64,000 bases of DNA. Source: Octopus vulgaris (taxonomy: Eukaryota). A program made the translations under genes and the position numbers. This document shows positions 1,946 to 13,790 of the stretch, in pieces. Position 1 is the first letter of the stretch. The number at the start of each line of letters is the position of its first letter. Under the pieces are notes generated by a model. The model was not told where the DNA came from. It was given only the letters and a program-made list of their open reading frames with translations, and ran no database searches. Location: assembly GCA_951406725.2 (NCBI GenBank), contig OX597836.1:11346001-11410000 (forward strand), written 5' to 3'.

Positions 1946-1993
1946 CATTTCAGTACTGGTTTCGATCATTTTGAGACCTTTTCAACTGTAACG
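1946..1993 (-). ncRNA. Type-I hammerhead ribozyme motif, U3-A8 core variant (Penelope-like element remnant)
   Basis: Minus strand reads CGTTACAG TTGAAAA GGTC TCAAAAT GATC GAAA CCAG TA CTGAAATG. Helix I is CGUUACAG/CUGAAAUG with one mismatch. Core is UUGAAAA, helix II is GGUC/GAUC, helix III is near-palindromic ACCAGU, and the cleavage triplet is GUA. Confidence 0.65.
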
Positions 1994-2284
1994 ATTAAAT
2001 AAGTAAATTTAGAAAAATTAAAAGAAAAGTTTTTTTAAAGGAATACTTGTATAGTGTTCAAATATAAGTGGCATTTTTCTTGTTTCTGCCTTTCTCTGTC
2101 TATCTAGCATTTTCTATCTTGACTTGTTTTTTCATATATATCAACTCGTGTGTTCCTTTTCACCCTTATATATATATATATATATATATATATATATATA
2201 TATATATATATATATATATATATATATATATATATATATATATATATATAGGGAGAGTTCACGACAGGCATCAACAGCAGTAGT

Positions 2285-2480
2285 GGAGGCGCAATGGCCC
2301 AGTGGTTAGGGCAGCGGACTCGCGGTCGTAAGAACTCGGTTTCGATTCCCAGAGCAAGCATTGTGAGTGTTTATTGAGCAAAAACGCCTAAGCTCCACGA
2401 GGCTCCGGCGGGGAGAGGTGGTGAACCCCGCTATACTCTTTCAAAACAACTTTCTTTCACTTTTCCTTCCTACTTCTTCC
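2285..2480 (+). mobile_element. SINE family B head (tRNA-like), 3' truncated
   Basis: GGAGGCGCAATGGCCCAGTGGTTAGGGCAGCGGACTCGCGGTC with A-box TGGCCCAGTGG and B-box-like GGTTTCGATTCC. The same head recurs many times in the window. Confidence 0.85.
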
Positions 2481-2767
2481 ACAAATCAGAGGAACCATGG
2501 TGTAACTCACTATAGTGTGGTAAAACTTTCAGACCCTAGTCTAGATTGCGAATCCTCTGTACCCCAGGATGGTTCAGCTCTCCAGTCGTTAAAGGCCATC
2601 GTTTACGGAATGAGGGCAACAACGTAGCTTTCGCGCCCCCGTGCAACCGCCAGTCTATCGCGTGTGGTGGGTGGATCTTCAAGCTGCTGCACGCATTCTT
2701 AGTAGTAGCTTAGGGTGGGCTCGAATTAGAGATTATTAATTCGTGGCTAATGGCGTGAATCCTGATT

Positions 2768-3192
2768 GGAAGAAGAAGAAGAAGGAGGAGGAGGAGGAGG
2801 AGGAGGAGGAGGAGAAGGAGAAGAAGAAGAAGAAGAAGAAGGAGGAGGAGGAGGAGGAGGAGAAGAAGAAGAAGAAGAAAAAGAAAAAGGAGGAGAAGGA
2901 AGAGGAGGAGGAGAAGAAGAAGGAGGAGGAGAAGAAGAAGAAGGAGGAGGAGAAGAAGAAGAAGGAGAAGAAAGAGGAGGAGAAAAAGGAGAGGGAGGAG
3001 AAGAAGAAGAAGAAGAAGAAGAAGAAGAAGAAAAAGAAGAAGAAAAAGAAAAAGGAGAAGGAGAAGGAAGAGGAGGAGGAGGAGAAGAAGAAGAAGGAGG
3101 AGGAGGAGAAGAAGAAGAAGGAGGAGGAGGAGAAGAAGAAGGAGGAGGAGGAGGAGAAAAAGGAGAGGGAAGAGAAGAAGAAGAAGAAGAAA
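2768..3192 (+). repeat. Pure polypurine (GAA/GAG)n tract, about 425 bp
   Basis: Only A and G on the + strand across the interval. It produces the spurious poly-K/E, poly-E/G and poly-L/F ORFs. Confidence 0.95.
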
Positions 3193-10623: not shown

Positions 10624-11121
10624 TATTGATACAATTGTTTCATTAGGAGAGTATTATTTTAACATGGGAAGCACTCTGTCGGTTACGACGACGAGGGTTC
10701 CGGTTGATCCGAATCAACGGAACAGCCTGCTCGTGAAATTAACGTGTAAGTGGCTGAGCATTCCACAGACACGTGTACCCTTAACGTAGTTCTCGGGGAT
10801 ATTCAGCGTGACACAGAGAGTGACAAGGCCGGCCCTTTGAAATACAGGTACAACAGAAACAGGAAGTAAGAGTGAGAGAAAGTTGTGGTGAAAGAGTACA
10901 GCAGGGATCACCACCATCCCTACCGGAGCATCGTGGAGCTTTAGGTGTTTTCGCTCAATAAACACTCACAACGCCCGGTCTGGGAATCGAAACCACGATC
11001 CTACGACCGCGAGTCCTCTGCCCTAACCACTGGGCCATTGCGCCTCCTATTTTAACATAAGCCTAATACAATTAGATTGTTTAATATATTATATATTCCC
11101 AACTCATCAGGCTACCCAATA
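10624..11121 (-). ncRNA. Degenerate hammerhead motif split by the SINE B insertion
   Basis: With the SINE removed, the minus strand reads TATTGGGTAGC CTGATGA GTTGGGA...TCCTAAT GAAA CAATTG TA TCAATA. Helix II is 7 bp and helix III is the palindrome ACAAUUGU. Helix I is partly deleted. Confidence 0.45.
10666..11047 (-). mobile_element. SINE family B, full length (tail type 1), with 11-bp TSD
   Basis: Flanked by the direct repeat TATTTTAACAT at 10655-10665 and 11048-11058. The tRNA-like head is at the right end. Confidence 0.92.
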
Positions 11122-11529
11122 AGCAACTGGGCGGTGAGGATTTTCTTAAGCAAAAAGCGATTTCCGGAGGCTTCGGGGTTATGTTCTTCGAGAACACTTC
11201 CAAAAGCAAAGACAATTCTTACGAAACGGTTGTCTGGTGAAGAAGCGCGATTTTCCAGCACGTAGCTTCGATTTCATTTCCACTACGCGTTTCTTTGCCC
11301 AATTGTTTTCTGCTATAGCGCCAAGCCAACCAATGGCTTGTATGTGGATTCTGTAGACGGAAACTGTATGGGAAGCTATGTGTGTGTAACTTTGAATTTT
11401 TAATTGTAACCGGACGTCGGCATCATCTCAACTTATTCTTACAAAAGAATTAAAACAGAAAATCCCACATCTCATAGCGTCAACACTTTTTCCAAAACGT
11501 TCTTAGAATCATCATATTATATTTATTCT

Positions 11530-11862
11530 TTTATTTGTTCTGATGATTTGACTGCGGCCACGCTGGAGCATAGCCTTTAGTCGAACTAATCGACCCTAGA
11601 ACTTATTTTTTCTAAGCCTAGTTCTTATTCTATCCGTCTCTTTCGCCGAACTGATAATTTATGGGGACATAAATACACCAACATCGGTTGTCAGGCGATG
11701 GCGATGGGGAGGGGCAAAAACAGATACTGTCTACCAAATCCTCTCACAAGCCTTTGGTCAGCCTGACGCTATAGTGGAAGACACTCGCCCAAGATGCCTC
11801 GCAGTGGGACTGAACCCTGAACCATGAGGCTGGGAAGGAATCTTCTTACCATACAGCCACAG
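11530..11862 (-). mobile_element. SINE family A (degenerate)
   Basis: TTTGACTGCGGCCACGCTGGAGCA...GCAGTGGGACTGAACC...TTACCATACAGCCAC. Confidence 0.8.
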
Positions 11863-13526
11863 TACCATACAGCCACAGTATCATACGTTCAAACAGCTAC
11901 AACGCTTCATCTTATTTTTGGACGTTTTAGATTAACCCTCACAATTATTTAATCGAAAAACGAAGGACTTCTGGCCTGAGGCCACATGCGGTATTTTTGG
12001 TGTTATAAAAGTTGCGGCCTGCCGTCTGTCTGCAAATCACAAATGCAGTCTTAACTTTGGCACGCTGCTCTGTTCTGGGGAATCAATACCGTCTCGTGTA
12101 ATATAAGTCAAACGTTGCTTGAGATATCAGACAAATATTATACAGAGAGGAATATTTTAATGTTGTTATTATTAAAAGTTACCACGAACAATGTTCAAAA
12201 ACCAAATATTGGATTAACATCTTATTGGCTGTTTATATATACATACATATATATATATATATATATATATATATATATATATATATATATATATATATTT
12301 CACTTAACGTTATTTCTATTATCAAATATTTTCTATTTTCTATTTTCTTCACGTCTTACTATTATCAACTTAGAAGAAAACAGATATATCTCCGATTGAT
12401 TATCATCATCATCATCATCATCATCATCATCATCATTGTTATTATTAATATTATTATTATTATTATTATTATTATTATTATTATTATTATTATTATTGTG
12501 GGTTTTTTTTTATTTTGATAATACTTTTATTTAAACTTTGTGTACATAAACAGGCTTTTATTTTAAAATATTTTATGTGTAAATAATAATAATAACATAG
12601 GTTTCGAATTTTGGCATAGAGCCAGCAGTTTTTTTGAGGGGAGGGGGAATCTCTGTGATTGACTGCTACTCTTTTTATTGACCCCCGGAAGAACGAAAGA
12701 TAAAATCGGCCTCGGTTGAATTTGATCTCTGAACATAAAGACAGTTGAAATAAAACTCGAACGTGATATATACATGTTCGAACAACAACAAAAATAATGC
12801 TTTCTATTATAGGCATAAGACTTGAAATTTGAGAGGAGGGGCTGTATTGATTACATTGACCACAGTAGTCGACTGGTACTTAATTGATCGCCGCCCAAAG
12901 AATCGACTCATCCCCTCCCACCAAATTAGTGCCTTTCTGGCAAAAATTGAAACCATTATTATTATTATTATTATTATTATTATTATTATTATTATTATTA
13001 TTATTATTATTATTATTATTATTTTTATTATTAATTTTATACCTGTGTTCGCTTTGATATTAAGATTGAAAAACTCGACCTTGTTTTTAAAAAAGTTTTG
13101 GTTTTGGGCTTGCATCCCACAAAAACATCTTCATACTTTTATGCCTCATACATATATGTGTGTCAGTGTGTCCGTGTTAGTTTGTGTGTGTGTGCATGTG
13201 TGTGTGTGTGTGCGTATGTGTCCACCAGTTGTAGGAAGCAATATTGCATTCAGAACTCAATAATAGACGAATATACGAACCATTTCCATTTCCTGACAAA
13301 TTAATGTAGAACGAATATAAAGAAATTGCTGGATATTCATGACTTTTTCCTCAGAAAACCTTATTGAAAACAGGAGTGTAAAACATATGGCTCAGGGCAA
13401 CGTTTACTGTAGCTTCTGGCTTTAATTTATCCATACAAACATTTTCATTATATCTGAATTTCAAGTTACGGAGATGTACTTGCACAGCAAGTGACCTGAT
13501 CTAATATTGTGTGCTGGAACGAAAGT

Positions 13527-13790
13527 AATTGTAGCGTGGAAGGTGTTTAAAAGCTACTTAAAACATACAAGAACCATTAGATTCACTTCAACATTTAAAT
13601 TAAATTTGTCAAAATATTTTCGTCGCTTTGAAACCGCGACCATTTCACTGACACACGGAATTTTGTCAGTGAACAGGTCACGGTCTCAAAGCGAAAAATA
13701 TTTTGAAAAATTAAATTTAAATGTTGAAGTGAATCTAGCGTTTTTTGTGTATTTCTTAAATGGCTTATAAAGACCTTCCATGCTACAATT
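13527..13790. repeat. Imperfect fold-back palindrome, about 125-bp arms, with divergent G3-C8 hammerhead motifs
   Basis: AATTGTAGCGTGGAAGG...CACTGACA pairs with TGTCAGTG...CCTTCCATGCTACAATT. The left arm on the minus strand (13607-13653) reads TGTCA GTGAAAT G GTCGC..GCGAC GAAA ATAT TT TGACA. The right arm on the plus strand (13662-13709) reads TTTGTCA GTGAACA G GTCAC... Confidence 0.85.

Follow-up and report, generated by a model that had tools for sequence, protein, structure and literature searches.

We analysed a 64,000-nucleotide stretch of the Octopus vulgaris genome (GenBank assembly GCA_951406725.2, contig OX597836.1, positions 11,346,001 to 11,410,000 of the forward strand), henceforth referred to as the window and numbered from its first letter. 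Nine family-derived hammerhead ribozyme motifs were located in it by a search restricted to non-permuted motifs. An earlier note on this DNA had drawn attention to two motifs in which the C3-G8 pair of the core is replaced, by U3-A8 at 1946-1993 and by G3-C8 in a palindrome near 13.5 kb. Copies collected across the genome, which is 2.8 Gb in size and rich in microsatellites, confirm U3-A8 and G3-C8 as the majorities of the two families. All four Watson-Crick pairings at positions 3 and 8 are fixed in families of this genome, and the hammerhead of the U3-A8 family, a young family, sits in the terminal repeat of a Penelope-like element (PLE).

The UUGAAAA core at 1946-1993 is present on the minus strand, in a motif that reads CAG UUGAAAA GGUC-loop-GAUC GAAA CCAG UA CUG and whose stems I and II pair. 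This copy departs from the majority of its family by two changes. One turns a stem II pair into G-U, and the other breaks the helix III palindrome, where ACCGGU has become ACCAGU and the self-duplex goes from -8.3 to +1.4 kcal/mol. The earlier description of all helices as intact thus holds only for the motif drawn as a monomer. The palindrome, previously placed at 13527-13790, is present as well, and the element that contains it is longer (13466-13790). Its inverted arm carries the reported GUGAACA core on the plus strand at 13669-13675, together with a 2-nt deletion before GAAA and mismatches in stems I and II. Neither arm is intact by itself, yet the consensus that had been composed from both is identical to the majority sequence of 28 full-length copies from the genome. 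The copies in the window are decayed relics and probably inactive. Neither motif reaches the gathering score of any Rfam family, and an Rfam scan by E-value was rejected (150 rows listed, all driven by microsatellites).

Table 1. Hammerhead-type motifs and associated insertions in the window
Position	Strand	Feature	Remarks
1898..2168	.	Truncated inverted PLE end insertion	Sits between (TA)n tracts; from blastn against full-length copy L305 and sequence
about 2101-1898	minus	Terminal-repeat segment of the 1898..2168 insertion	
about 2105-2168	plus	Short 3' end with tail of the 1898..2168 insertion	
1946..1993	minus	Minimal hammerhead motif of type I with a U3-A8 core	U3 1985, A8 1980; predicted cut 1954/1953; helix III palindrome decayed
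7930..7976	minus	Second copy of the A6U family	CUGUUGA
13466..13653	minus	Non-coding G3-C8 element (~207 nt), main arm	5'-truncated; 3' tail ends at 13466
13605..13653	minus	Hammerhead motif of the main arm	Intact helices; decayed core, GUGAAAU (G3 13648); predicted cut 13612/13611
13654..13790	plus	Inverted arm of the G3-C8 insertion	Stops at the shorter 3' end, one of two in the family
13662..13709	plus	Hammerhead motif of the inverted arm	Core intact (G3 13669, C8 13674), stems damaged
18645..18690	plus	C3-G8 minimal hammerhead copy	CUGACGA; G in place of A15.1
22890..22945	minus	Copy of another U3-A8 family	First core box deleted
30777..30822	plus	C3-G8 copy, U4C subfamily (CCGACGA)	Same family as 18645..18690
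41250..41320	minus	C3-G8 type I hammerhead copy	Long stem II, helix III decayed
45245..45292	minus	Copy of the C3-G8 family with an A6U majority	G8 changed to U here

A DNA search of the genome for the U3-A8 family gave 1,092 first-look candidates, the best of them 97-98% identical. When positions 3 and 8 were left free, the pattern of this family matched 1,877 times and its reversed-pattern control never, and 99 of the 100 matches listed carry U3-A8. The family majority has a perfect 4-bp stem II, a stem I of 3+4 bp and the helix III palindrome ACCGGU. Longer copies continue into a frame with a reverse transcriptase (RT) motif, judged by eye to be of the YLDD type, a CX4CX2C linker and an endonuclease (EN) domain of the GIY-YIG type. 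The CX2-5CxxC linker between RT and EN reads CGRPNCGIC in three loci (L065, L307 and L308), and the RT-EN of the L308 family is intact, with 781 aa. The GIY-YIG domain of L065 is matched by Pfam at an E-value of 5e-4 with 20.8 bits, below the cut-off of 22.6 that related families exceed. In a full-length copy (L305), two motifs in direct orientation stand 4,386 bp apart, with the RT/GIY-YIG frames between them. Across copies of the family, the 3' end falls at one of two places, the flanks are (TA)n, and some segments are inverted.

The PLE features found are thus an RT with a C-terminal GIY-YIG domain, the CX2-5CxxC linker, a tail at one end, an inverted truncated repeat and a (TA)n target. 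Neptune/Nematis-type EN+ PLEs share this order of RT, linker and C-terminal GIY-YIG, as well as pseudo-long terminal repeats, a tail, inverted insertions and microsatellite targets (Craig et al. 2021, PMC8557442). The full-length octopus copies, whose membership in this clade is putative, differ from them by an extra upstream frame. This frame, about 400 aa long, lies upstream of the RT-EN frame and overlaps it in L305 (4864-3557, minus strand) and L308 (1-942, plus strand). A distant PLE family (L072:3-1766, minus strand, and L025) has a 588-aa open stretch and a 3' motif with a long stem II like that at window position 41311.

For the family of the window palindrome, the 28 full-length copies yield a 207-nt majority, with a mean of 10.9 differences, and stems I (7-8 bp) and II (5 bp) are part of its minimum-energy structure; helix III is the palindrome AAUAUU. 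With positions 3 and 8 free there were 1,803 pattern matches against 0 for the reversed-pattern control, and G3-C8 occurs in 95 of the 100 matches listed. It occurs in 72 of the 85 listed for a pattern that includes the 5' end, and no C3-G8 copy is among either set. The count is somewhat inflated by one inverted insertion inside a larger repeat (7 of 30 loci). This insertion recurs in many places, with identical junction and flanks, within a larger dispersed repeat (L282, L283, L292-L294, L296 and L303). The family is also present in related species, and three RNA runs and one contig set show no variant at ≥10% at G3 or C8 among the rows listed.

At its 5' side the unit begins sharply: 30 of 30 loci, chosen for having this end, share no sequence upstream of it. 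The end may mark where transcription starts, or it may be the relic of an inversion junction. This end (e.g. L092:1501-1709) is complementary to both the tail end and the shorter 3' end. The 3' end comes in two versions, which lie about 55 nt from each other, and inversions are frequent; together with the sharp 5' end, this is the PLE footprint. Copies are single or in inverted pairs in the loci examined, with no head-to-tail tandem; one locus (L058) holds several copies with other sequence between them. Compared with the 3' regions of six PLE families, the element of the window shows no significant similarity (best E-value 0.5). The family is likely a non-autonomous unit that is moved in trans by a PLE protein.

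We scanned 120 evenly spaced 10-kb stretches (1.2 Mb) for the hammerhead structure with positions 3 and 8 left free. This even sample contains 22 matches, 18 of them with a Watson-Crick pair (12 C-G, 3 U-A, 2 G-C and 1 A-U). The reversed control had none, and five rounds of shuffles gave 14 matches, three of which are Watson-Crick. The four non-Watson-Crick matches are two (ATG)n-type sequences, one weak U-G and one decayed copy. A GIY-YIG search, for which 30 of 148 loci were examined, yielded further U3-A8 families and a frame (L316) with a second G3-C8 motif behind it. This frame-linked family has G3-C8 in 18 of 21 copies and in 12 of 12 pattern matches. An A3-U8 family (AUAUC AUGAAUA GC-GAUA-GC GAAA CCGG UC GAUAU), to which one match of the even sample led, has its motif 285-310 nt behind a GIY-YIG EN frame and gave 216 matches, with A3-U8 in 98 of the 100 listed. 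A third lineage has U3-A8 in 16 of 21 copies, and two carry deletions. Among the 12 families tallied with positions 3 and 8 free, none has a mismatched majority. A mismatched G3-A8 family had been suspected from one locus (L202) and was rejected: the match there is a decayed member of a family in which three of six have C-G. The sequences of stem I, stem II and helix III vary between families, yet the pairing and the palindrome are kept. The majorities of both the 1946-1993 family and the palindrome's family have U4 G5 A6 N7, A9, G12 A13 A14, A15.1-U16.1, H17 and G10.1-C11.1. Three more U3-A8 families, with unrelated stems and no linked frame, were seen (L023, L068, L101 and L126; L085 and L122; L212).

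Trees were built from the C-terminal part of the RT-EN frames of this genome only; L323 and L183, in which no motif was seen, were kept, and L230, which had no columns, was left out. In them the A3-U8 family groups, with moderate support (91/91, 89/88), as sister to the frame-linked G3-C8 family, and the other two lineages of their clade are both U3-A8. In the outgroup, the single intact copy (L315) carries C3-G8. The motif of this copy (about 5205-5262, plus strand) has G at position 17, and a related copy in L203 has A17. A clade of the U3-A8 families alone is not rejected by the approximately unbiased (AU) test (p-AU 0.158). With this value and the basal split, the trees do not fix the direction of the swaps. 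Under either branching order, the sequences imply a minimum of three double changes, and the U3-A8 families would largely represent one inherited state and not independent ones.

Our search of the literature found no report of a natural G3-C8 or A3-U8 hammerhead, which alignments such as those of Lunse et al. 2017 could hold; that study reportedly deals with dimer-cleaving PLE hammerhead variants, by its title of the same structural class. U3-A8 is already published (Perreault et al. 2011, PMC3088659), and for PLE hammerheads by Cervera and de la Pena 2014 (PMC4209133). The passages of Perreault et al. (PMC3088659) report a natural covariation from C3-G8 to U3-A8, as well as further variants of the core, among them A6C, whose activity is low; for the pair they name only U3-A8, whereas G3-C8 and A3-U8 occur here. 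The Cercyon family of Schistosoma fixes U3-A8, with about 1,300 matches (PMC4209133). It and the other metazoan PLE hammerheads of that study have in common with ours the terminal repeats, a short or palindromic helix III and G10.1-C11.1. The descriptors used there fixed C3-G8 or U3-A8, and the rows of its Fig. S3 covered here show only C-G, U-A (two rows) and U-G (one row), in contrast to the G3-C8 and A3-U8 found here. The Poseidon PLE of Anolis, whose "tail" marks the start of reverse transcription, offers a likeness in a G3-C8 PLE hammerhead: single C3G or G8C changes abolish cutting, and C3G/G8C partly rescues it (PMC11167929). That G3-C8 is engineered and partly active, whereas the G3-C8 described here belongs to natural families. 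C3 and G8 pair in the active hammerhead fold (PMC3884650), and minimal PLE motifs cut weakly, as dimers (PMC4209133).

We consider it quite probable that both window motifs are decayed copies of minimal type I hammerheads from PLE terminal repeats, and that the 3-8 pair was kept by selection on the source elements for a predicted self-cleaving fold. The source elements would be selected to keep the active fold and hence a complementary 3-8 pair. Two ribozyme copies would pair through the palindromic helix III into a dimer, probably helped by the element's own protein, and the dimer would cut after N17 and so process the precursor RNA. At least three double substitutions would have been fixed. 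Two of them could have passed through a G-U wobble (C-G/U-A and A-U/G-C), while the remaining one would need a mismatched intermediate; the swaps would have taken wobble steps where possible. Inserted copies such as those of the window would then decay neutrally. The earlier note had argued from two independent double substitutions to selection on catalysis. Selection on the pair is now better supported, by the A3-U8 and second G3-C8 families, but U3-A8 is largely one inherited state, and other core positions held to be invariant have changed in high-copy families, so that any selection on catalysis would not be strict.

These changed positions are among several observations that weigh against the proposed self-cleavage. 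Textbook rules regard core positions such as A13, A6 and U4 as invariant. In one family (L313 and L314; G000:C22 and C4) with 1,772 matches, A13 is replaced, with C in 96, U in 4 and A in 0 of the 100 listed. This A13C family is young, has U3-A8 and a weak stem I, and its motif lies ~0.7-0.9 kb behind the EN frame, with GCAA for GAAA. The commonest family of the even sample has an A6U majority (≥23 of 28 copies). It has C3-G8 and a free N7, numbers 20 copies in 1.2 Mb and includes the motifs at 7930-7976 and 45245-45292. U4C occurs in 15 of 22 copies of another family. In its U4C subfamily, 10 of 16 even-sample copies are exactly CCGACGA, and near-identical copies of the motif at 30777-30822 exist elsewhere. 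The textbook core is thus not needed for spread, and either these RNAs tolerate more than the textbook rules allow or cutting is not strictly required.

Cut-site evidence adds to this. Genomic 5' ends are not piled up at the predicted cut in 30 G3 loci (indel-affected lengths of four loci read by eye). In a weak test, 28 of 30 G3 copies reach upstream of it, seven of them being one amplified insertion. In three RNA-seq runs of a related species, both strands are represented and read ends do not pile up, again a weak test (about 6% of each run, fragmented cDNA). The AAUAUU of helix III pairs weakly (-0.2 kcal/mol), and a wobble between G3 and U17 is conceivable. No RT-EN frame was found beside the window's G3-C8 family in the 60 loci searched of 90 flanked, and no autonomous parent in two longer regions either. 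Single window copies fold no better than shuffled sequence (z -0.5, +0.7 and -1.3), so the support for the motifs comes from the families. A tentative extension, possible but doubtful, is that one PLE radiation would have naturally saturated the hammerhead core, with all four 3-8 pairs and A13C, A6U and U4C fixed and all still cutting, since the element's protein would chaperone the dimer.

The same core changes in high-copy families and the missing cut-site signal in genomic 5' ends and RNA reads would fit a fold kept as a platform for binding or positioning the PLE protein (at the start of reverse transcription or in packaging), with cutting weak or dispensable and the 3-8 pair shaping the bound RNA. 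In Anolis, cleavage depends on the protein of the element, but insertion in vitro does not require it, as cleavage mutants still insert, and no RNA ends were found at the cut (PMC11167929). We nevertheless think such a platform improbable, as the active conformation contains the C3-G8 pair, which is absent from ground-state crystals of minimal ribozymes (PMC3884650), and the swapped families keep H17 and A15.1-U16.1. It is highly unlikely that the pairings are founder accidents, in which drift changed positions 3 and 8 of a few masters and these then multiplied, with no selection acting on the pair. Each family does trace to few masters and the U3-A8 families are related, so that the independent events are possibly only three, and three complementary outcomes would arise by chance at about (1/3)^3 = 0.04, counting double changes only. 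Drift predicts more families with a mismatched single change than with a double change, however, and none of the 12 tallied is of that kind; a pattern with non-C3/non-G8 and an ACGU helix III was not enriched over its control either (574 versus 784).

The G3-C8 element of the window, which is short, non-coding and hammerhead-bearing, and whose 5' and 3' parts are predicted to pair, could also be an RNA of the retrozyme type, replicating through monomers that cut themselves out and are circularised. It carries PLE footprints, too. This is very unlikely given the dispersed copies, the sharp 5' end upstream of the motif and the lack of a linker closing the circle; three ordinary RNA-seq runs of a related species contain no head-to-tail circular joint among the joints listed.

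The earlier statement that most cores are CUGANGA is overstated: the exact sequence occurs in two of the nine (18653 and 41311), C3-G8 in four, and five derive from C3-G8 families. Three CUGANGA...GAAA spacings lack type I helices (9911-9936, plus strand; 31281-31328 and 56813-56857, minus strand). Two candidates (9911 and 50032) were dropped because they have no relatives in 1.95 Mb of genomic loci, and those at 37972/37975, 57393, 39292, 25480 and 12436 as low-complexity or chance matches. A SINE-like repeat is present as two tandem 184-bp copies at 32353-32720.

The prediction that a CUGANGA descriptor misses the U3-A8 and G3-C8 families was borne out. In the even sample, 6 of the 18 Watson-Crick matches have a pair other than C3-G8. 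Counts of these motifs made with standard descriptors are therefore too low, and such descriptors may mistake PLE families for ones that have no hammerhead. If the saturated core does still cut with the help of the element's protein, PLE hammerheads would form a class of protein-assisted ribozymes whose core alphabet is wider and which CUGANGA searches mostly miss. The octopus families lend natural, family-level support to C3-G8 as a tertiary pair: each of the four pairings is represented, and three of the four states occur inside one retroelement clade. They also provide natural constructs for asking whether PLE hammerheads must cut in order to transpose.

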